Part shown: piece after piece, positions 4,223-54,523 of the stretch
How the letters are laid out: the number at the start of each line of letters is the position of its first letter
Numbering within the stretch: the stretch's first letter is position 1
From: Escherichia coli
Lineage (GTDB): Bacteria > Pseudomonadota > Gammaproteobacteria > Enterobacterales > Enterobacteriaceae
Direction: 5' to 3' (one strand)
Length of the DNA: 64,000 nt
Assembly (NCBI RefSeq): GCF_044647545.1
Contig: NZ_CP172818.1
Program-made: the position numbers and the translations under genes
Notes under the pieces: generated by a model
Told to the model about the DNA's origin: nothing
Seen by the model: only the letters and a program-made list of their open reading frames with translations
Database searches by the model: none

Positions 4223-4582
4223 ATGGTATCCGCACTCATCACCGTCGCCGTTATCGCCTGGTGTGCGCAACTGGCCTTAGGCGGCTGGCAAATTTCTCGT
4301 TTTAACCGTGCCTTCGACACACTATGCCAGCAAGGGCGGGTTGGCGTGGGCCGTTCCAGCGGGCGCTTTAAACCGCGGGTCGTGGTCGCCATCGCCCTGG
4401 ACGATCAGCAGCGCATCGTCGACACCTTGTTTATGAAAGGACTGACCGTCTTCGCCCGACCGCAAAAAATTCCCGCAATTACCGGTATGCATGCGGGTGA
4501 TTTACAGCCCGATGTGATCTTTCCCCATGATCCACTATCACAGAATGCTCTATCATTGGCGCTTAAACTGAAACGTGGATAA
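4223..4582 (+). CDS. gutM: glucitol operon activator
   Basis: 119 aa ORF between srlD and srlR, conserved position. Confidence 0.85.
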   Translation: MVSALITVAVIAWCAQLALGGWQISRFNRAFDTLCQQGRVGVGRSSGRFKPRVVVAIALDDQQRIVDTLFMKGLTVFARPQKIPAITGMHAGDLQPDVIFPHDPLSQNALSLALKLKRG

Positions 4583-10697: not shown

Positions 10698-12965
10698 TTA
10701 ACGCTTAGTTACGCCACATCCGCCACTATGCAGCATGCAGGAGCGCGCCGCAGCAATAACCCCCTGCCCCAGAGACAAGCCGCCATCACCCGCCGGTAAA
10801 CTCTGCGGAAAGAGTAATGTGAAATCAGCGAGATAATGCGCCAGGCGTGTACGCAGCAATCGGTTATGAATAACCCCACCGCTAAATACCAGCGTAGTGA
10901 TACCGCGCATCGTGGCCTGCTCACGCATCAACGCGGCAAAACCCTGCGCCAGCGCATCATGAAACGCCCACGCGCGTTGATTAACCGGTGCCTGCCAGTT
11001 CAGCCACTGCTGCCAGAAGGTGGCGAGATCCAGTTGATTGTCCACCAGCGGCATCGTCACCGGATGCGTCACTCCCTGGCTCGAAGCCGCCAGCGCCTCG
11101 AGGGCGCAAGCCGCTTCACCTTCATAACTTAACGTGGCTGGCGCACAGCCCAACGCCGCCGCTACGGCATCGAACAAACGTCCACACGATGATGCCAGCG
11201 GCGCGTTAATTCCACGCTCAATGGCCCGCGCCAGCACGCTCCAGTTTTGCTGTTGCACACTTGCCGTTTCAGGGTAATTCTGCCACTCCGGCACAAAGCG
11301 CAGGCACTGCGCCAGCAGGTTACGCCACGGCTGCTTTGCAGCCAAATCGCCCCCCGGAAGCGCCACCGCAGGCAAGCCGCCCAGGTGTTCACATTCGCGA
11401 TAGTTCACCCGCAGGCACTCGCCGCCCCATAAAGCGCCGTTCTCCCCCATACCGATACCGTCGAGCGTCAACGCAATGACATCACCGCCATCCAGCGGCC
11501 AGTGATGTTCTGCCAGACACGCCGCCGCATGAGCATGATGATGCAGCACCGTTTGCGTCGGCAGATTCATTTCGCGCGCCCACTGGCTGGAGACATAGCC
11601 CGGATGCGCGTCATGCACAACGTATTGCGGAGTGAAATCGTAGATGTTTTGCATCAGGCGTAACGCTTCGCGCCACTGCATCTGGATGCCATCGTCACTT
11701 AAATCGCCCAGATGCTGACTCAACACCGCTTGTTTACCGCGCACCAGGCAGAAGGTATTTTTCAGATCCGCGCCGAGACACAGCACAGGCGGAACATTTT
11801 TAAAGCCTGGAGGCAAAGCCAGCGCATCCGGCACATACCCCCGCGAACGGCGCAGCATTTCGCCGTTTTCGCGCACCACCGAATCATCCATCCGCTGCAC
11901 GATGTCGCGGTTATGTATCAAGAATCCGTCGGCAATCCCCTGCAAATCCGCCAGCGCCTGTTCGTTGCTGATAGCTGGTGGTTTACCGCTCAGGTTGCCG
12001 GAGGTCATCACCAGCGGGCATTGCAGTTCCTGTAACAGCAAATGTTGGAGCGGGTTCGCAGGCAACATCACCCCAACTTCGTTAAGGCCAGGGGCGATAT
12101 CATCACAAAGCTCAGGAACGTATTTTTTATCCACCAGAACAATCGGCGCGGCGGGCGTGGTAAGCAACTGGCGCGCAGCGTCAGGTAAACCGTCAGCCAC
12201 TGGCAACATGACCGCCAGCGGTTTCGCCGGGCGATGTTTGCGTGCCCGTAGTGTCGCCACCGCGTTACTGTTACGCGCATCGCAGGCGAGATGAAATCCG
12301 CCAATCCCTTTGATGGCGACAATGTTGCCCATTTTTAACTGTGCGATAGCCGCCTGTAATGCCGCCTCTTGTTCTGCATGTTCACCATGACTTACCCATT
12401 CAAGATGTGGGCCACACTCCGGGCAGGCCACCGGCTGGGCGTGGAAGCGACGATCGAGCGGGTCACAGTACTCTTTGTCACAAGCCGGACACAGCGGAAA
12501 CGCCGCCATCACGGTAAACGGGCGATCGTAAGGCATGGCGCGAATAATGGTGAAACGCGGGCCACAGTGGGTACAGTTGATAAACGGATAACGATAACGC
12601 CGCTCGCCTGGGGTATTCATTTCGGCAAGGCAAGCAGGGCAAGTGGCGGCATCCGGGACAATTTGCGTATTCATAGTGCCGCCTGTGCTCTGGCGGATAG
12701 TGAACTCAGTGGGCAGTTGTGACCAGATAAACGGCTCACGCTCGACGCTATCAATACGCGCCAGCGGCGGGCAGTGCTGATGCAACTGCACAAGAAACGT
12801 TTCCGGGTCTTCCAGCAGCCGGACTTCTACGCCATCGCCGTCATTACAGACATCGCCGTGAAGATTTAATTGCTGTGCCAGTTGCCAGACAAACGGACGA
12901 AAACCGACGCCCTGCACTTTGCCACGAATACGCAGTTGGACACCGCAAGATGTGTTTTTTGCCAT
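10698..12965 (-). CDS. hypF: hydrogenase maturation carbamoyltransferase HypF
   Basis: ORF 10698..13037 trimmed to [25 protein letters not shown] (acylphosphatase domain), followed by two CxxC-x18-CxxC zinc fingers, YrdC-like and Kae1-like domains. Confidence 0.88.
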
Positions 12966-17953: not shown

Positions 17954-17980
17954 GCAACTACCGTCGCACGAACCAGGAAA

Positions 17981-18005
17981 GCCCGATAAGCGTAGCGCAT
18001 CGGGC
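17981..18005. repeat. REP-like palindromic element downstream of ascB
   Basis: gcccgataagcgtagcgcatcgggc inverted repeat, REP-like. Confidence 0.45.
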
Positions 18006-18124
18006 AATCTGGGGTTTGGCATCAGAAAAAAAAAGCTGGTGGCCTGTGCAGGCAGCACTAAGCTCAATAAAAAAGCGCACATCCCTGTTCTGATGTTCAA
18101 TTCCCTGAATTCCTTACTGAAAAA

Positions 18125-31968: not shown

Positions 31969-32011
31969 CAGATGTGTTATACTCGATCAACATTCAATGA
32001 AAGGAGGCAGT

Positions 32012-32059
32012 ATGGCAGTTTCAGCAAGAAATCAATTAACCGGAACAGTTACGCAGTAG
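32012..32059 (+). pseudogene. 15-codon ORF with molbindin (Mop/TOBE)-like N-terminus MAVSARNQLTGTVTQ behind a strong RBS; truncated
   Basis: aaggagg 6 nt upstream of ATG; MxxSARNxLxGxV is the typical start of Mop domains; in-frame TAG after 15 codons. Confidence 0.35.
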
Positions 32060-32139
32060 CAATGGGCGCTTGAATGATGAAGTAGAACCGACGCCGCAGG
32101 TGTGCAAAACTTGCAATTGTTACACACAGCAGCCAGCAG

Positions 32140-32390
32140 GCTCTTGGCCGGGAAAAAGGAAAAAAAGGCGCCCCCCCGAAAAAGCCCCCGGGGGGAAACG
32201 CGGAAAAGAAAAGCGGGGGGGAAACTCCCCCCCCCCACCCGCTGCGCGGCGCGCGGGCAAACACCCGCGAAGGGCGGGGGGAGCCCCCTCCAAAAAAAAA
32301 AAGGGGGGGTTTTAAAATGGGGGGGAAAAAAAAAAAAAAGGAAGGAAAAAAAAACCCCCTAAAAAAAAAACACCAAAAAGGAAAAATTTG
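32140..32390. repeat. low-complexity block dominated by homopolymer runs (A up to 14, C up to 10, G up to 7)
   Basis: read directly; composition atypical for E. coli chromosome; resembles degraded base-calls. Confidence 0.8.
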
Positions 32391-32412
32391 CCGGAGAGTA
32401 TGGCTCTCCGGC
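32390..32412 (-). terminator. intrinsic terminator candidate for ygbA
   Basis: gccggagag-tatgg-ctctccggc hairpin 5 nt after ygbA stop, followed on the minus strand by a T-rich tract. Confidence 0.55.
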
Positions 32413-32416
32413 AGAT

Positions 32417-32761
32417 TTATTTCTTTGGACGATATTTTTCTGGCAACTCCGGCACCGGACGCTTGTCATCGATGAGATGACGCACGGTTAAGATCGGATG
32501 ACGCCACAGCATTCGCGGCCCGGCCCAACGCATAATCTGTTTCATCTCTTCACGCTTTGCTGGCTGGTAACAGTGCACCGGACACTGCTTACAGGCTGGT
32601 TTCTCTTCGCCGAACACACATTTATCCAGCCGCTTTTGCGCGTAGGCAAACAGCGCGTCGTAATGCTCCGGCTCCGCTGACGCCTGCGGGCATTTCGCTT
32701 GATAAAGATCGATCATTTTTTTAATCGTCAGTTTTTCACGAGAGATACGCTTGCCGGACAT
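32417..32761 (-). CDS. ygbA: Cys-rich small protein YgbA (nitrous oxide-stimulated promoter family)
   Basis: 114 aa ORF with CxxxC...CxxC...CxxCxxHC cysteine pattern. Confidence 0.85.
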   Translation of the reverse strand: MSGKRISREKLTIKKMIDLYQAKCPQASAEPEHYDALFAYAQKRLDKCVFGEEKPACKQCPVHCYQPAKREEMKQIMRWAGPRMLWRHPILTVRHLIDDKRPVPELPEKYRPKK

Positions 32762-33047: not shown

Positions 33048-35609
33048 ATGAGTGCAATAGAAAATTTCGATGCCCATACGCCCATGATGCAGCAGTATCT
33101 CAAGCTGAAAGCCCAGCATCCCGAGATCCTGCTGTTTTACCGGATGGGCGACTTTTATGAACTGTTTTATGACGACGCAAAACGGGCGTCGCAACTGCTG
33201 GATATTTCACTGACCAAACGCGGTGCTTCAGCGGGAGAGCCAATCCCGATGGCGGGGATTCCCTACCATGCGGTGGAAAACTACCTCGCCAAACTGGTGA
33301 ACCAGGGCGAATCGGTTGCTATTTGTGAACAGATTGGCGATCCGGCGACCAGCAAAGGGCCGGTCGAGCGCAAAGTTGTCCGTATCGTTACGCCGGGCAC
33401 CATCAGCGATGAAGCGCTGTTGCAGGAACGTCAGGACAACCTGCTGGCGGCTATCTGGCAGGACAGTAAAGGTTTCGGCTACGCAACGCTGGATATCAGT
33501 TCCGGTCGTTTTCGCCTGAGCGAACCGGCGGACCGCGAAACGATGGCGGCAGAACTGCAACGTACGAATCCAGCGGAATTACTGTATGCGGAAGATTTCG
33601 CCGAGATGTCGCTGATTGAAGGTCGCCGCGGCCTGCGTCGTCGCCCGCTGTGGGAGTTTGAAATCGACACCGCGCGCCAGCAGTTAAACTTGCAATTTGG
33701 CACTCGCGATCTGGTCGGTTTTGGCGTCGAGAACGCGCCGCGCGGACTTTGTGCCGCCGGTTGTCTGTTGCAATATGCGAAAGATACCCAACGCACGACC
33801 CTGCCGCATATTCGTTCTATCACTATGGAACGTGAGCAGGACAGCATCATTATGGATGCCGCGACGCGTCGTAACCTGGAAATCACCCAGAATCTGGCGG
33901 GTGGTGCGGAAAATACGCTGGCTTCTGTGCTCGACTGCACCGTCACGCCGATGGGCAGCCGTATGCTGAAACGCTGGCTGCATATGCCAGTGCGCGATAC
34001 CCGCGTCTTGCTTGAGCGCCAGCAAACTATTGGCGCATTGCAGGATTTCACCGCCGAGCTGCAGCCGGTACTGCGTCAGGTCGGCGACCTGGAACGTATT
34101 CTGGCGCGTCTGGCTTTACGAACCGCTCGCCCACGCGATCTGGCCCGTATGCGTCACGCTTTCCAGCAACTGCCGGAGCTGCGTGCACTATTAGAAAATG
34201 TCGAAAGCGCACCGGTACAGGCGCTGCGTGAGAAGATGGGCGAGTTTGCCGAACTGCGCGATCTGCTGGAGCGGGCCATTATCGACACACCGCCGGTACT
34301 GGTGCGCGACGGTGGTGTTATCGCGCCGGGCTATAACGAAGAGCTGGATGAGTGGCGGGCGCTGGCTGACGGCGCGACCGATTATCTGGAGCGTCTGGAA
34401 ATCCGCGAGCGTGAACGTACCGGCCTGGACACGCTGAAAGTCGGCTTTAACGCGGTTCATGGTTATTACATTCAGATCAGCCGTGGACAAAGCCATCTGG
34501 CACCCATCAACTATATGCGTCGCCAGACGCTGAAAAACGCCGAACGCTACATTATTCCAGAGCTAAAAGAGTATGAAGACAAAGTACTCACCTCGAAAGG
34601 TAAAGCACTGGCACTGGAAAAACAGCTTTATGAAGAGTTGTTCGACCTGCTGTTGCCGCATCTGGAAGCGTTGCAACAGAGCGCGAGCGCGCTGGCGGAA
34701 CTCGACGTGCTGGTGAACCTGGCGGAACGGGCCTATACCCTGAACTACACCTGCCCGACCTTTATTGATAAACCTGGCATTCGCATTACCGAAGGCCGCC
34801 ATCCAGTGGTTGAACAGGTACTGAACGAACCGTTTATCGCTAACCCGCTAAACCTGTCGCCACAGCGCCGCATGTTGATCATTACCGGTCCGAACATGGG
34901 CGGTAAAAGTACCTATATGCGCCAGACCGCGTTGATTGCGCTGATGGCGTATATCGGCAGCTACGTACCGGCGCAAAAAGTCGAGATTGGCCCGATCGAC
35001 CGTATCTTTACCCGCGTAGGCGCGGCAGACGATCTGGCATCCGGGCGTTCAACCTTTATGGTGGAGATGACCGAAACCGCCAATATTTTACATAACGCCA
35101 CCGAATATAGTCTGGTGTTGATGGATGAGATCGGGCGTGGAACGTCCACTTACGATGGTCTGTCGCTGGCGTGGGCATGCGCGGAAAATCTGGCAAATAA
35201 GATCAAAGCGTTGACGCTGTTTGCTACCCACTATTTCGAGCTGACCCAGTTACCGGAGAAAATGGAAGGCGTCGCCAACGTGCATCTCGATGCGCTGGAG
35301 CACGGCGACACCATTGCCTTTATGCACAGCGTGCAGGATGGCGCGGCGAGCAAAAGCTACGGCCTGGCGGTTGCAGCTCTGGCAGGCGTGCCAAAAGAGG
35401 TTATTAAGCGCGCACGGCAAAAACTGCGTGAGCTGGAAAGCATTTCGCCGAACGCCGCCGCTACACAGGTTGATGGTACGCAGATGTCCCTGCTTTCTGC
35501 GCCAGAAGAAACGTCGCCTGCGGTCGAGGCACTGGAAAACCTCGACCCGGATTCACTGACTCCGCGTCAGGCGCTGGAGTGGATTTATCGGTTGAAGAGT
35601 CTGGTGTAA
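33048..35609 (+). CDS. mutS: DNA mismatch repair protein MutS
   Basis: 853 aa ORF; N-terminal mismatch-binding GDFYELF, Walker [10 protein letters not shown]. Confidence 0.95.
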
Positions 35610-35615
35610 TAACAA

Positions 35616-35642
35616 TTCCCGATAGTCTTTTGCTATCGGGAA
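35616..35642 (+). terminator. 10-bp stem hairpin after mutS (ttcccgatag-tcttttg-ctatcgggaa)
   Basis: read in sequence 7 nt after mutS stop; no strong U-run. Confidence 0.45.
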
Positions 35643-35714
35643 TATTAACGACAACTGACGAATCAAATAAAAATACCCTGTATAATAGGAAATCTTATTT
35701 TACAGGGTAAAACC

Positions 35715-36371
35715 ATGCCATCTACACGCTATCAAAAAATTAATGCCCATCACTATCGTTATATATGGGCCGTTGGTGATATTCATGGTGACTATCAATT
35801 ATTACAATCCCGCTTACATCAACTCTCTTTTTGCCCTGAAACCGACTTACTTATTTCCACAGGCGATAATATTGATCGTGGGCCGAAGAGTCTTAACGTG
35901 CTGCACCTGCTAAACCAACCCTGGTTTACGTCGGTTAAAGGCAACCACGAAGCGATGGCGTTGGATGCATTCGAAACTGGCGATGGAAATATGTGGCTTG
36001 CCAGCGGTGGTGACTGGTTTTTCGATTTAAATGATTCAGAGCAACAAGCGGCAATAGATCTGTTGCTGAAATTCCATCACCTTCCACATATTATTGAAGT
36101 TACTAACGACAACACAAAATATGTCATCACACATGCAGATTATCCGGGGAATGAATATCTCTTTGGTAAAGAAATAGCGGAGAGCGAATTACTCTGGCCT
36201 GTTGATCGTGTGCAGAAATCGCTTAATGGCGAGTTACAACAAATAAACGGCGCTGATTATTTTATATTTGGACATATGGTGTTTGATAACATTCAGACGT
36301 TCGCAAACCAGATTTATATTGATACCGGATCGCCGAAAAGCGGGCGGCTGTCATTTTATAAAATAAAGTAG
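35715..36371 (+). CDS. pphB: serine/threonine protein phosphatase 2 (calcineurin-like metallophosphatase)
   Basis: 218 aa ORF with GDIHGD and GDNIDRGP metallophosphatase motifs. Confidence 0.9.
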   Translation: MPSTRYQKINAHHYRYIWAVGDIHGDYQLLQSRLHQLSFCPETDLLISTGDNIDRGPKSLNVLHLLNQPWFTSVKGNHEAMALDAFETGDGNMWLASGGDWFFDLNDSEQQAAIDLLLKFHHLPHIIEVTNDNTKYVITHADYPGNEYLFGKEIAESELLWPVDRVQKSLNGELQQINGADYFIFGHMVFDNIQTFANQIYIDTGSPKSGRLSFYKIK

Positions 36372-36372
36372 T

Positions 36373-36398
36373 CTCATGCTTCTTCTGTGAAGCATGAG
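36373..36398. terminator. 10-bp perfect hairpin (ctcatgcttc-ttctgt-gaagcatgag) between convergent pphB and ygbI
   Basis: read in sequence 2 nt after pphB stop. Confidence 0.5.
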
Positions 36399-36399
36399 T

Positions 36400-37150
36400 A
36401 ACCGAGATGTTCTGCAGGCCCCTACTCATTTTTCGCTACCAGCAAAGAGAGATCCTGCTTCGCCAGCACGCAACTGGCGCTCTCCGGCGAAGCCGCATAT
36501 CTAATAATCTGATCAAACTAGTAATGGTAACGCCAGCCATGTCGCCACCTGACCATATTTCGTCGCATCACAGACCAAAACTCGCTGGCGGCTGGCACTG
36601 GCAATCGCCCGTTTCACCGTGACTTTATCTTTCCGCTGGCGTAAATCCCCCGCACACTCCATGACGATGCAGAAATAAAAACCTGATCAATCATCAGGCT
36701 GCGCAGCATGGTCGCAGCGGCTTCCCCGACACAGGAACGGTTTTCCCGACACACTGCACCGCCAGTGTGAATAATTGTGCAATTACTGTTGTCAGCAAGT
36801 AGTTCGCAATAACGAAATCGTTTGTGACCACAGTCAGTGACTCCATGTGAATCAGATGCTGTGCTATCGCTAACGTGGTCGTTCCCGCATCCAGATAGAT
36901 ACAACTTTCCGGCTGAACAGACTTTTGCCGCCAGCTTGCCAATAGCCGCTTTTTGCGTCATTGCCAGCGCAGTTTTACCTAAGTTCGCCATGCGCCACGC
37001 GTCCCGGAGACTGGACGCCTCCGGACACCCAGCACAACGGCTCCCTGCTGCTCCAGTTTTTGTAAATCCCGACGAATGGTCATATGTGACACATTACTCA
37101 TTCTGTCCGTTAGTTCAGCAATACTGACAATGCCTTTTTCAGCTTATCTC
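36400..37150 (-). pseudogene. ygbI: DeoR-family regulator YgbI, reading frame broken in several places
   Basis: minus-strand translation gives DeoR HTH fragment VSHMTIRRDLQKLEQQGAVVLGV and a C-terminal sugar-binding fragment (ORF 36614..36991) in different frames separated by stops. Confidence 0.5.
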
Positions 37151-37382
37151 AAGGATCATCTGGCGACGCTCTACGGGTATCAACTTTTGCTCCTTCCTTT
37201 GTCCTGCTGACATTCTACGCTATTTGCCTGCGAAACGTGCGCGGCGCAACTAACGCTTAGTTCACATAAAATAACACACAATGTTAATTTATGTGAATCA
37301 GCTCACCATATCGTTATCTTCCAGCGCTTATATTCACAATATCAAACAAAATATCACTTAAATTAACCAACAAGGAGAGCAG

Positions 37383-38291
37383 ATGAAAACGGGATCTGAG
37401 TTTCATGTCGGTATCGTTGGCTTAGGGTGAATGGGAATGGGAGCAGCACTGTCATGTGTCACGAGCAGGTCTTTCTACCTGGGGCGCAGACCTGAACAGC
37501 AATGCCTGCGCTACGTTGAAAGAGGCAGGTGCTTGCGGGGTTGCTTGATAACGCCGCGACGTTTGCCGAAAAACTGGACATTATGCTGGTGCTGGTGGTA
37601 AATGCGGCCCAGGTTAAACAGGTGCTGTTTGGTGAAACGGCGTTTGCACAACATCTGAAACCCGGTACGGCAGTAATGGTTTCTTCCACTATCGCTAGTG
37701 CTGATCGCGCAAGAAATTGCTACCGCTCTGGCTGGATTCGATCTGGAAATGCTGGATGCGCCAGTTTCTGGTGGTGCAGTAAAAGCCGCTAACGGTGAAA
37801 TGACTGTCATGGCCTCCGGTAGCGATATTGCCTTTGAACGACTGGCACCCGTGCTGGAAGCCGTTGCCGGAAAAGTTTATCGCATAGGTGCAGAACCGGG
37901 ACTAAAGAGTTCGACCATTAAAGTTCTTCACCAGTTAGCGGGCGTACATATTGCTGCCGGAGCCGAAGCGATGGCACTTGCAGCCCGTGGGATCCCGCTG
38001 GATGTGATGTATGACGTCGTGACCAATGCCGCCGGAAATTCCTGGATGTTCGAAAACCAGATACGTCATGTGGTGGATGGCGATTACACCCCGCATTCAG
38101 CCGTCGATATTTTTGTTAAGGATCTTGGTCTGGTTGCCGATACAGCCAAAGCCCTGCACTTCCCGCTGCCATTGGCCTCAACAGCATTGAATATGTTCAC
38201 CAGCGCCAGTAACGCGGGTTACGGGAAAGAAGACGATAGCGCAGTTATCAAGATTTTCTCTGGCATCACTCTACCGGGAGCGAAATCATGA
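37383..38291 (+). pseudogene. ygbJ: 3-hydroxyisobutyrate dehydrogenase-family enzyme YgbJ (putative L-threonate dehydrogenase) with premature stop and compensating frameshifts
   Basis: ATG 37383 then GIVGLG Rossmann start, TGA at codon 16 (37428); middle segment readable in frame of ORF 37529..37792 and C-terminal 197 aa in ORF 37698..38291; total span 909 nt equals an intact 302-aa gene. Confidence 0.55.
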
Positions 38292-39454
38292 TCAAGATTG
38301 GCGTTATCGCCGATGATTTTACCGGCGCGACGGATATCGCCAGTTTTCTGGTGGAAAACGGTCTACCAACGGTACAAATTAACGGTGTTCCAACAGGTAA
38401 AATGCCGGAAGCAATCGACGCACTGGTGATCAGCCTGAAAACGCGCTCCTGTCCAGTGGTTGAAGCCACACAGCAATCGCTGGCGGCTCTGAGCTGGTTG
38501 CAACAGCAAGGTTGCAAACAGATCTATTTCAAATACTGCTCTACTTTCGACAGTACGGCGAAAGGTAATATTGGCCCGGTTACCGATGCCTTAATGGATG
38601 CTCTCGACACGCCGTTTACGGTCTTCTCTCCGGCCCTGCCGGTCAACGGACGTACGGTTTATCAGGGGTATTTGTTCGTAATGAATCAACTGCTGGCCGA
38701 ATCCGGGATGCGCCATCACCCGGTAAATCCCATGACCGACAGCTATCTTCCCCGTCTGGTTGAAGCGCAATCCACAGGGCGCTGCGGCGTCGTTTCGGCA
38801 CATGTTTTCGAACAAGGTGTGGATGCCGTTCGTCAAGAGCTGGCTCGCTTACAGCAAGAGGGCTACCGCTACGCGGTGCTTGATGCGCTGACCGAACACC
38901 ATCTGGAAATTCAGGGAGAAGCCTTGCGCGATGCCCCACTGGTAACGGGCGGTTCTGGTCTGGCGATTGGCCTGGCCCGGCAGTGGGCGCAAGAAAACGG
39001 TAACCAGGCTCGCAAAGCAGGGCGTCCGCTCGCTGGGCGCGGCGTAGTGCTCTCCGGTTCATGCTCTCAAATGACCAACCGCCAGGTAGCACATTACCGT
39101 CAAATTGCACCAGCCCGTGAAGTTGATGTGGCACGCTGCCTCTCAATTGAAACTCTGGCCGCTTATGCACACGAACTGGCAGAGTGGGTTCTGGGCCAGG
39201 AAAGTGTACTTGCTCCACTGGTTTTTGCCACCGCCAGCACTGACGCATTGGCAGCAATTCAACAGCAATACGGTGCACAAAAAGCCAGTCAGGCAGTAGA
39301 AACACTGTTTTCTCAACTAGCGGCGCGGTTAGCAGCGGAAGGCGTGACACGCTTTATTGTCGCAGGCGGTGAGACCTCCGGCGTAGTCACACAGAGCCTG
39401 GGAATAAAAGGGTTTCATATTGGCCCAACCATTTCCCCGGCGTGCCGTGGGTAA
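38288..39454 (+). CDS. ygbK: four-carbon acid sugar kinase family protein YgbK (putative 3-oxo-tetronate kinase)
   Basis: 388 aa ORF MIKIGVIADDFTGATDIASFL (DUF1537 N-terminus); 4-bp overlap with ygbJ stop. Confidence 0.8.
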   Translation: MIKIGVIADDFTGATDIASFLVENGLPTVQINGVPTGKMPEAIDALVISLKTRSCPVVEATQQSLAALSWLQQQGCKQIYFKYCSTFDSTAKGNIGPVTDALMDALDTPFTVFSPALPVNGRTVYQGYLFVMNQLLAESGMRHHPVNPMTDSYLPRLVEAQSTGRCGVVSAHVFEQGVDAVRQELARLQQEGYRYAVLDALTEHHLEIQGEALRDAPLVTGGSGLAIGLARQWAQENGNQARKAGRPLAGRGVVLSGSCSQMTNRQVAHYRQIAPAREVDVARCLSIETLAAYAHELAEWVLGQESVLAPLVFATASTDALAAIQQQYGAQKASQAVETLFSQLAARLAAEGVTRFIVAGGETSGVVTQSLGIKGFHIGPTISPACRG

Positions 39455-39545
39455 ACGCACTGGATAAGCCTGTCTCACTCGCCCTTAAATCTGGCAACTT
39501 CGGTGATGACGCCTTTTTTTCACGAGCCCAAAGAGAGTTTTTATC

Positions 39546-40184
39546 ATGAGCGATTTCGCAAAAGTAGAGCAGTCTTTGCGAGAGGAGATGACGCGGATTG
39601 CCAGTTCATTCTTTCAGCGCGGCTATGCAACCGGTTCGGCTGGCAATCTGTCGCTGCTTTTACCTGACGGGAATTTACTGGCGACACCGACAGGTTCATG
39701 CCTGGGCAATCTCGATCCGCAGCGGCTTTCCAAAGTCGCCGCGGATGGCGAATGGTTAAGTGGTGACAAACCCTCGAAAGAGGTGCTCTTTCATCTGGCG
39801 CTGTATCGCAACAATCCGCGCTGTAAAGCGGTGGTGCATTTGCACAGCACATGGTCGACGGCGCTTTCCTGCCTGCAAGGGCTGGACAGCAGCAACGTTA
39901 TTCGTCCGTTCACACCATACGTGGTGATGCGGATGGGAAATGTCCCGCTGGTGCCTTATTACCGACCGGGCGATAAACGCATCGCACAGGATCTGGCGGA
40001 ACTGGCAGCAGACAATCAGGCTTTTTTACTGGCAAATCATGGCCCAGTGGTTTGCGGTGAAAGCCTGCAAGAAGCCGCCAACAATATGGAAGAGCTGGAG
40101 GAAACGGCAAAGCTGATTTTTATTCTCGGTGACCGCCCGATCCGTTATCTGACCGCAGGTGAAATTGCGGAATTAAGGAGTTAA
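39546..40184 (+). CDS. ygbL: class II aldolase/adducin-family protein YgbL (putative 3-oxo-tetronate 4-phosphate decarboxylase)
   Basis: 212 aa ORF, class II aldolase fold signature (HLHS, GS). Confidence 0.8.
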
Positions 40185-40188
40185 TGCA

Positions 40189-40965
40189 ATGCCTCGTTTT
40201 GCAGCTAATTTATCCATGATGTTCACCGAAGTGCCTTTTATTGAACGCTTCGCCGCAGCGCGAAAAGCCGGGTTCGATGCTGTGGAATTTCTGTTTCCCT
40301 ATAACTACTCCACCCTGCAAATCCAAAAGCAACTGGAGCAAAACCATCTGACACTGGCGCTGTTCAATACCGCTCCCGGAGATATTAATGCGGGGGAATG
40401 GGGATTATCCGCCCTTCCCGGACGTGAGCACGAAGCACACGCAGACATCGACCTGGCACTGGAATATGCATTGGCGCTCAATTGTGAACAAGTCCATGTG
40501 ATGGCAGGCGTCGTGCCCGCTGGCGAAGATGCTGAACGGTACCGGGCAGTATTTATCGATAATATCCGCTACGCTGCCGACCGCTTTGCGCCACACGGCA
40601 AGCGAATATTAGTTGAAGCACTCAGCCCCGGCGTTAAGCCTCATTATCTCTTCTCCAGCCAGTATCAGGCACTGGCTATTGTTGAAGAGGTTGCGCGAGA
40701 TAACGTGTTTATTCAACTAGATACTTTTCATGCGCAAAAAGTAGATGGCAACCTGACGCATTTAATCCGCGACTACGCCGGGAAATATGCGCACGTACAA
40801 ATTGCCGGACTACCTGATCGACATGAACCGGACGATGGAGAAATCAACTATCCGTGGCTGTTCCGCCTGTTCGATGAGGTGGGATATCAGGGCTGGATCG
40901 GTTGTGAATATAAACCTCGTGGCCTCACCGAAGAAGGGCTTGGCTGGTTTGACGCCTGGCGCTAA
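40189..40965 (+). CDS. ygbM: hydroxypyruvate isomerase-like TIM-barrel protein YgbM (putative 2-oxo-tetronate isomerase)
   Basis: 258 aa ORF, xylose isomerase-like TIM barrel. Confidence 0.8.
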
Positions 40966-41053
40966 TTCGTTAAATCCCTAATTACAACGTACCCATACAT
41001 CCCCCCATCTACGGATGGGGTAGGTTAACTATAACTTTCAGACAGGGTTTCCC

Positions 41054-42418
41054 ATGTCCACAATTACATTGTTATGCATTGCGTTAGCTGGCGTAATCAT
41101 GCTGTTGCTGCTGGTCATCAAGGCAAAGGTACAACCATTCGTTGCTTTGCTCCTCGTCAGCCTGTTAGTCGCACTTGCGGCAGGTATACCGGCGGGCGAA
41201 GTGGGTAAAGTGATGATCGCCGGGATGGGCGGTGTGCTTGGTTCCGTCACTATTATTATTGGTCTGGGCGCTATGCTGGGGCGTATGATCGAACACTCTG
41301 GTGGTGCAGAGTCACTGGCTAATTATTTCAGTCGCAAGTTAGGTGACAAACGAACTATCGCTGCGCTGACTCTGGCAGCGTTCTTCCTCGGTATTCCCGT
41401 CTTCTTTGATGTCGGCTTTATTATTCTTGCGCCAATCATTTACGGTTTTGCCAAGGTTGCCAAAATATCGCCACTCAAATTTGGCCTGCCTGTCGCTGGG
41501 ATCATGCTCACTGTTCACGTGGCGGTACCGCCGCATCCAGGCCCTGTCGCCGCAGCGGGGTTACTCCACGCAGACATCGGCTGGCTAACCATCATCGGTA
41601 TTGCGATTTCTATTCCCGTAGGGGTTGTTGGCTACTTTGCAGCGAAAATAATCAATAAGCGCCAATATGCGATGTCAGTAGAAGTACTGGAACAGATGCA
41701 ACTGGCTCCGGCCAGTGAGGAAGGCGCGACAAAATTAAGCGATAAAATAAATCCACCGGGCGTCGCGCTGGTCACCTCGCTAATTGTTATTCCTATCGCG
41801 ATTATCATGGCGGGTACGGTTTCCGCAACACTGATGCCGCCTTCGCATCCCCTGCTTGGTACGCTACAGCTGATCGGCTCACCAATGGTAGCTCTAATGA
41901 TTGCGCTGGTGCTGGCATTCTGGTTATTGGCTTTACGTCGCGGCTGGAGCTTACAACACACCAGCGACATTATGGGCTCAGCGCTTCCTACTGCGGCGGT
42001 AGTGATTTTGGTTACTGGTGCTGGAGGGGTATTTGGCAAAGTGCTGGTGGAATCGGGCGTCGGCAAAGCCCTTGCCAACATGCTACAAATGATTGACCTG
42101 CCTCTGTTACCAGCCGCATTTATTATTTCACTGGCGCTGCGTGCATCGCAGGGGTCAGCAACCGTAGCAATACTGACAACCGGCGGGTTACTCTCAGAAG
42201 CGGTGATGGGATTGAATCCGATTCAGTGCGTATTGGTGACGCTGGCAGCCTGCTTTGGTGGGCTTGGTGCGTCACATATTAATGACTCAGGGTTCTGGAT
42301 TGTGACCAAATATCTGGGGTTGTCGGTAGCAGACGGTCTGAAAACCTGGACAGTGTTAACGACCATTCTCGGTTTTACCGGATTCTTAATTACCTGGTGC
42401 GTATGGGCGGTAATTTGA
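41054..42418 (+). CDS. ygbN: GntP-family acid sugar transporter
   Basis: 454 aa polytopic membrane ORF. Confidence 0.85.
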   Translation: MSTITLLCIALAGVIMLLLLVIKAKVQPFVALLLVSLLVALAAGIPAGEVGKVMIAGMGGVLGSVTIIIGLGAMLGRMIEHSGGAESLANYFSRKLGDKRTIAALTLAAFFLGIPVFFDVGFIILAPIIYGFAKVAKISPLKFGLPVAGIMLTVHVAVPPHPGPVAAAGLLHADIGWLTIIGIAISIPVGVVGYFAAKIINKRQYAMSVEVLEQMQLAPASEEGATKLSDKINPPGVALVTSLIVIPIAIIMAGTVSATLMPPSHPLLGTLQLIGSPMVALMIALVLAFWLLALRRGWSLQHTSDIMGSALPTAAVVILVTGAGGVFGKVLVESGVGKALANMLQMIDLPLLPAAFIISLALRASQGSATVAILTTGGLLSEAVMGLNPIQCVLVTLAACFGGLGASHINDSGFWIVTKYLGLSVADGLKTWTVLTTILGFTGFLITWCVWAVI

Positions 42419-42424
42419 CCTTAA

Positions 42425-42457
42425 TAAAAAGGTCCGATGGGCATCGGACCTTTTATT
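42425..42457. terminator. bidirectional intrinsic terminator between ygbN and rpoS
   Basis: aaaa-ggtccgat-gggc-atcggacc-ttttatt: 8-bp GC-rich stem flanked by A-run and T-run. Confidence 0.8.
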
Positions 42458-42511
42458 GTGCACAGAAAAGGCCAGCCTCATAAGAGACTGGCCTTTATGA
42501 CAGATGCTTAC

Positions 42512-53652: not shown

Positions 53653-54418
53653 CGGTTTATCCCCGCTGGCGCGGGGAATCGCCGGAAAATATTCATGATG
53701 GGGGTGGTTATGGCGGTTTATCCCCGCTGGCGCGGGGAATCTCGGGGCCGCCGTGTTCACATTTGCCTAATTTCCCGGTTTATCCCCGCTGGCGCGGGGA
53801 ACTCTATCATAAACGAGGTGAATTTATGGAAACTGTACGGTTTATCCCCGCTGGCGCGGGGAACTCGTTAGTTTTCGAAAAAATTGTTTTCTTACGCTGG
53901 TTTATCCCCGCTGGCGCGGGGAACTCAATTATTGTCGTGGACAAATGCCGGTGTTATTGCGGTTTATCCCCGCTGGCGCGGGGAACTCATTCGAGACAAT
54001 CTCTCAAAATTAATGAAATCGGTTTATCCCCGCTGGCGCGGGGAACTCCAGGTATCAAGAAATAATCGAAGCCTTCATGACGGTTTATCCCCGCTGGCGC
54101 GGGGAACTCAATTGATTGCTGGGTGATATTGGAAAATGTTGCGGTTTATCCCCGCTGGCGCGGGGAACTCCTACCGTACAGATCCTGACCGGATATTATT
54201 TTTTTGCGGTTTATCCCCGCTGGCGCGGGGAACTCCGACGTTCGACGAAATGCGCGATGGCGGTCGGCGGTTTATCCCCGCTGGCGCGGGGAACTCTTCT
54301 GCGTCCCCGATGTCTGGCCCGACTGGTCCGGTTTATCCCCGCTGGCGCGGGGAACTCTATATGACCGGAACACTTCCGCCTGACGTTTGCGGTTTATCCC
54401 CGCTGGCGCGGGGAACTC
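53653..54418 (-). CRISPR. type I-E CRISPR array: 13 copies of 29-bp repeat (minus-strand GAGTTCCCCGCGCCAGCGGGGATAAACCG), 12 spacers
   Basis: repeat starts on + strand at 53653, 53714, 53776, 53838, 53898, 53960, 54020, 54081, 54142, 54207, 54268, 54329, 54390; distal repeats degenerate; spacers about 31-33 nt except one of 36 nt. Confidence 0.97.
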
Positions 54419-54523
54419 TCTAAAAGTATACATTTGTTCTTAAAGCATTTTTTCCCATAAAAACAACCCACCAACCTTAATGTAACATTTCCTTATTATT
54501 AAAGATCAGCTAATTCTTTGTTT
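54419..54523 (-). promoter_or_regulatory. AT-rich CRISPR leader between cas2 stop and first repeat
   Basis: 105 bp AT-rich tract adjacent to consensus repeats; the degenerate repeat is at the opposite end. Confidence 0.8.

Follow-up and report, generated by a model that had tools for sequence, protein, structure and literature searches.

The 64,000-nucleotide stretch of Escherichia coli DNA analyzed here (the window; contig NZ_CP172818.1) carries a ygbI-ygbN cluster of acid-sugar genes between mutS and rpoS. From left to right it consists of a remnant of ygbI, which encodes the DeoR-family repressor of ygbJK (36425..37183, minus strand), a divergent promoter region shared with ltnD (37184..37382), a remnant of ltnD, which is also called ygbJ (37383..38291, plus strand), and then otnK (ygbK), otnC (ygbL), otnI (ygbM) and ygbN on the plus strand. 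The RefSeq annotation gives ltnD as L-threonate dehydrogenase, otnK as 3-oxo-tetronate kinase, otnC as 3-oxo-tetronate 4-phosphate decarboxylase and ygbN as a GntP-family transporter. In the same annotation ygbM appears without a gene name as an "HPr family phosphocarrier protein"; we take ygbM to be the gene known as otnI. Homology and synteny identify both ygbI and ltnD, which occupy a K-12-like position between pphB and otnK. YgbI of K-12 is a DeoR-family protein with a single binding site between ygbI and ygbJ, through which ygbJK is repressed, and deletion of ygbI permits growth on L-tartrate (PMC8464067).

The remnant of ltnD has been traced with the ORF list, the raw sequence, the list of indels and a tblastn search, in which K-12 LtnD maps to 37383-38291 (E = 2e-136). 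The initial annotation had described a frame that opens at 37383, meets a TGA at codon 16, continues in a second frame and finally returns to the original one, within a span equal to that of an intact gene, and each of these statements is borne out. The ATG is present at 37383 (MKTGSEFHVGIVGLG), and the TGA is caused by a C>G change at 37429 (TCA to TGA). The second frame corresponds to the ORF at 37529-37792, and the original frame is regained in the 197-aa ORF at 37698-38291. The span of 37383-38291 is exactly 909 nt, or 302 codons, and has been kept through insertions of A, G, C and AAG and deletions of GTT and GCG, the net change being zero. With the TGA at codon 16 and three changes of frame, the gene has no full-length uninterrupted reading frame.

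For ygbI, a tblastn search with K-12 YgbI covers 36425-37183 on the minus strand (E = 3e-49). As had been reported from inspection of the sequence, the gene can be read only piecewise; the pieces are in three frames, and the ORF list gives them as 36979-37101, 36694-36942, 36614-36991 and 36513-36662; according to the list of indels, its net length change is -6 nt. The promoter region at 37184-37382 is that of natural alleles apart from four inserted nucleotides (AACC, 37365-37368), directly upstream of the ltnD ribosome-binding site.

To define the extent of the damage, pairwise and multiple alignments were made with natural ygbI-ltnD alleles of ATCC 8739, K-12 MG1655, MLI023K1, 120899, N24 and ET846. 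The initial annotation had placed the damage at 36400-37720; damage is present there, but these limits are too narrow, and the real run extends over 36404-38063. In these 1.66 kb we have counted approximately 60 substitutions and 16 indel events of 1-5 nt against natural alleles. In the multiple alignment, approximately 90 columns set the window apart from five natural alleles that all agree at these sites, while those five alleles differ among themselves by up to 7%. The patch begins 33 nt from the left junction of the island described below, and its densest damage lies at 36404-36521; short scrambled stretches are also found within it, for example at 36977-36988 and 37639-37643. A profile of indels against K-12 over the whole window shows them only in this patch, in the CRISPR array and near 32000-32500.

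Substitutions in the patch are distributed evenly over the three codon positions (15, 17 and 21 at the first, second and third), and the ratio of transitions to transversions is 1.33, compared with approximately 3.1 for natural divergence in the flanks. Only two of the 16 indel events are in homopolymers, and insertions and deletions are similar in number, without a deletion bias. A mutation spectrum typical of bacteria, with an excess of transitions, indels in homopolymers and repeats, and a deletion bias, was looked for in the patch and was not found. As read from the alignments, this spectrum is unlike that of selection-filtered divergence, of a diverged paralogue or of slippage-driven decay. 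The comparison with a reference E. coli K-12 genome that the initial annotation had proposed has been carried out, and together with further comparisons it supports the reading of the damage as sequence error.

A second copy of ygbI-ltnD-otnK' has been found on the 256-kb E. coli plasmid pEc4097 (NZ_CP047278.1, 10159-12861), where it is cut by IS26 and is approximately 77-81% identical, and the acid-sugar cluster is therefore also plasmid-mobile. A paralogous or xenologous ygbI-ltnD was considered as a source of the patch through cross-mapping and has been rejected, since only three of 59 window-unique bases fit the 77%-identical plasmid copy and the codon positions are evenly affected.

To the right of the patch the sequence is clean. 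The end of ltnD, otnK, otnC/ygbL, otnI/ygbM and ygbN (38064..42479, plus strand) are identical to K-12 at 4416 of 4416 positions. The otnK ORF (38288-39454) encodes 388 aa and has the K-12-type truncation, in which one C is missing at 39434, so that a run of four C is found in place of the five in most strains. Approximately 90 nt of formerly coding sequence separate its end from the start of otnC/ygbL at 39546, whereas in most E. coli OtnK has 420 aa and its gene overlaps otnC. Since K-12 is otherwise not distinguishable here from natural phylogroup A strains, the assignment of 38064-42479 to K-12 comes down to this single homopolymer base of otnK. On the left side of the island, 36462-37582 contains five SNP sites at which K-12 has a private base, and the window has the common, non-K-12 state at all of them; this speaks against a plain K-12 fill, and a straight reference fill of the whole island from K-12 has been ruled out for its left part.

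One reading of these data is genuine pseudogenization, in which ygbI and ltnD, as repressor and first enzyme of the L-threonate/acid-sugar cluster, have been truly inactivated by natural decay through accumulated frameshifts and a nonsense mutation. Both genes are indeed unreadable in the record, K-12 tolerates the loss of ygbI and even profits from it on some substrates (PMC8464067), and decay does occur in this cluster, because otnK is naturally truncated in K-12. We nevertheless consider this reading very unlikely. The damage of the patch directly adjoins 4.4 kb without a single change, and neutral decay in situ to approximately 3-4% is contradicted by the 4,416 nt of the same island that show no difference from K-12, since a neutral clock of this rate would have to have run in one part of the island and not at all in the other. 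Indels that are neither associated with homopolymers nor biased to deletion also argue against decay.

The broken allele is confined to one record. Among 5,426 complete E. coli genomes, the best identity to 36400-38070 is 95.5%, and all 4,587 genomes that have the ygbI-ltnD locus are 90%-95.5% identical over this range. Exact matches to the 197-aa and 125-aa fragment peptides were found in only one NCBI contig, of 4,499,902 bp, in a search of approximately 15 billion proteins, and scans for exact patterns of the garbled sequence in species-representative genomes and metagenomes gave no hits. Neither the lesions nor any subset of them were found to be common to related genomes in the 5,426 genomes, the NCBI proteins or the genome and metagenome scans, and the lack of a related allele in these collections is a further point against natural decay.

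The genome around the cluster belongs to another lineage than the cluster. Outside 36371-42466, the window has no substitutions against WP4-S18-ESBL-09 over approximately 55 kb, apart from four small spots, and this backbone is also near-identical to ECONIH1 and many relatives. The lineage of ECONIH1 and WP4-S18-ESBL-09 is presumably ST648, and no MLST genes are contained in the 64-kb window. In this lineage the mutS-rpoS island consists of genes for hydroxyarylic acid decarboxylase subunits (BCD) and a MarR-family (MarR/SlyA-like) regulator, located between pphB and rpoS. In the window the lineage's own island is missing, and a phylogroup-A-type ygbI-ygbN island is found instead (36371-42480). 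The backbone's own island was also force-aligned to the ygb template as a possible source of the garbled sequence; no offset with agreement above chance and no local similarity resulted, and this source has been discarded.

Both junctions of the island are sharp. At the left junction (36371..36372), the backbone is 100% identical up to 36370, which is the end of pphB, and the last backbone-specific base is at most 34 nt from the border. At the right junction (42466..42480), backbone identity is back from 42466, with backbone-specific bases first seen at 42480-42483; the switch is thus made within 14 nt. This pphB allele is joined to ygbI in no complete genome, the best full-length match being 95.6%, and the ygb island is combined with this right flank in no complete E. 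coli genome. On these grounds the ygbI-ygbN island as a whole does not look native to the backbone of the record, and whether the cluster is inactivated in this strain is therefore probably not a meaningful question.

The genes mutS and pphB (33048-36371) are identical to those of ECONIH1 and WP4-S18-ESBL-09 and differ from K-12 by approximately 5-6%, about twice as much as neighboring genes, in keeping with the mosaic history known for mutS.

The region between mutS and rpoS is known to be polymorphic and to be a hotspot of natural island exchange (PMC4209514). Judged on context alone, an island swap at this hotspot may therefore have taken place, and the island could be real: a phylogroup-A-type ygbI-ygbN recently transferred, in nature or in the laboratory, into an ECONIH1-type backbone, with 36404-38063 covered only by reads of low depth or quality and the genes intact in the cell. 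Because the SNPs on the left are non-K-12 and the assignment of the right part to K-12 depends on one base, the island could be non-K-12 phylogroup A DNA, from the strain or from contamination, that has been badly read, and the common alleles at the left fit such donor DNA better than a fill from a K-12 reference. Junctions within 14-34 nt of the borders, with no donor-type flanks, are unusual for homologous recombination, and the combination is missing from all complete genomes. On balance a real but badly read island is unlikely, although we would give it some weight.

The position of the patch, 33 nt from the left junction and densest there, would also suit a real burst of mutation localized to 1.7 kb, for example by error-prone synthesis at a recombination junction. 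To our knowledge, no bacterial process produces approximately 4% substitutions together with 1% mixed small indels over 1.7 kb in one step, and comparable damage is found at three more unrelated loci, including a smear that can be aligned to a true gene. Localized hypermutation is thus barely credible as the origin of the patch.

These further loci and one single-base difference are the four other discrepancies of the window from the backbone lineage, and all of them fall in segments that have no counterpart in K-12. Such segments make up only approximately 2.5% of the backbone-homologous sequence, yet they contain all four discrepancy loci. By comparison with WP4-S18-ESBL-09, a second corrupted patch has been located at 31977..32385 (plus strand) in a TOBE-domain gene, which lies next to ygbA, is absent from K-12 and corresponds to a gap in the K-12 alignment at 31970-32419. 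The 3' half of this gene shows a serial loss of G and then a degenerate homopolymer smear (…GGCGCCCCCCCGAAAAAGCCCCCGGGGGG…). The smear at 31977-32385 is roughly alignable to the true gene of WP4-S18-ESBL-09 and is approximately 60 nt shorter, and the sequence is perfect again from 32386.

A third corrupted patch was found, by the same comparison, in the type I-E CRISPR array (53654-54420, with errors at 53678..54190). Its 12 spacers are the same as those of WP4-S18-ESBL-09, but seven of the 12 have indels of 1-4 nt, which give lengths of 31-36 nt in place of the normal 32, and one repeat lacks a C; no spacer is held in common with K-12. Between hycI and ascB, 562 bp comprising an HTH-domain gene and a portion of a small hypothetical gene have been lost, while they are kept in all ten of the best-matching genomes. 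The joint of this loss is a run of A (18026..18031, at 18031/18032; CATCAG-AAAAAA-AAAGCT) that lies centrally in a non-K-12 segment of 145 nt (17959-18103). The last discrepancy, between hypF and norW, is the absence at 10742 of one nucleotide that the closest genomes have, on the edge of a 95-nt stretch that cannot be aligned to K-12.

These loci bear on the alternatives given above. Natural decay of ygbI and ltnD cannot account for damage to the CRISPR array and a homopolymer smear in the same window. For a real island that was badly read, the evidence points in both directions: the error signature of its left part matches that of the other corrupted patches, whereas all other defects follow K-12-absent segments, which would indicate a template-guided build of the record.

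Since the breaks in ygbI and ltnD lie inside a 1.7-kb corrupted patch of a chimeric-looking assembly, they are most likely due to sequencing or assembly error. The initial annotation had preferred sequence error to natural decay, and our results agree with it in several respects: the damage is restricted to a single record, affects otherwise invariant sites, has no codon bias, is length-compensating, neighbors a region of zero divergence and is one of several corrupted patches. It is confined to one record, in which other non-biological defects are also found. In our judgment, based on sequence comparison, the frameshifts and stops of ygbI and ltnD are very probably errors of the deposited sequence and not mutations of a living genome, and the broken pair is not a real biological feature.

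As for the cause, we infer a template-guided assembly or gap-filling step. The record would represent an E. coli of the ECONIH1/WP4-S18-ESBL-09 type that has been assembled or repaired using a K-12-like (phylogroup A) template. Segments with a counterpart in K-12 would then have given a perfect consensus, and those without one would have been lost, garbled or replaced. Sequence present only in the template, namely the ygbI-ygbN island at mutS-rpoS, would have been kept, with its left 1.7 kb in very poor quality.

The sequence could also be taken at face value, as that of a real strain in which a phylogroup-A-type island has been swapped in at exact homology borders and a burst of mutagenesis at the junction has destroyed the repressor and first enzyme; we regard this combination as very unlikely indeed. 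Reductive evolution of the Shigella type has been rejected, since collinearity with K-12 is kept over the window, IS elements and further disrupted genes are lacking, and the backbone is 100% identical to ordinary E. coli.

For users of sequence databases, the value of this case is one of data hygiene. The record should not be used for claims of a loss of L-threonate or acid-sugar catabolism, of de-repression of ygbJK or of a new type of mutS-rpoS island, and any further disrupted genes or odd junctions described from this genome should be viewed with suspicion. Real lesions of this kind would make an unusual case of junction-associated hypermutation, and nothing found here supports that.

The window shares with the K-12 ygbI-ygbJKLMN cluster (ltnD-otnK-otnC-otnI) its gene order, spacing and promoter region and 4.4 kb of exact identity, including the 388-aa otnK, and differs from it in that neither ygbI nor ltnD can be read in one continuous frame. 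It spans the same locus as the polymorphic mutS-rpoS region, in which alternative islands are found according to phylogenetic group. Natural variants of that region have donor-type flanks or divergence typical of their lineage, whereas the window has exact-border junctions, a foreign backbone and an arrangement present in no other genome. Pseudogenes of host-restricted Escherichia and Shigella likewise include catabolic genes with frameshifts and stops, but the damage here is much denser than one or two lesions per gene and is seen in no relative, and, unlike in those lineages, neither IS elements nor other disrupted genes were found within the 64 kb. Although the island has not simply been copied from K-12 in its left part, the window resembles the artefacts of template-guided or poorly finished bacterial records. 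As in such records, errors are limited to one entry and have a random-like spectrum, with small length-compensating indels and smears; strain-specific insertions have been lost, template-only sequence has been retained, and the junctions lie exactly at the borders of homology.
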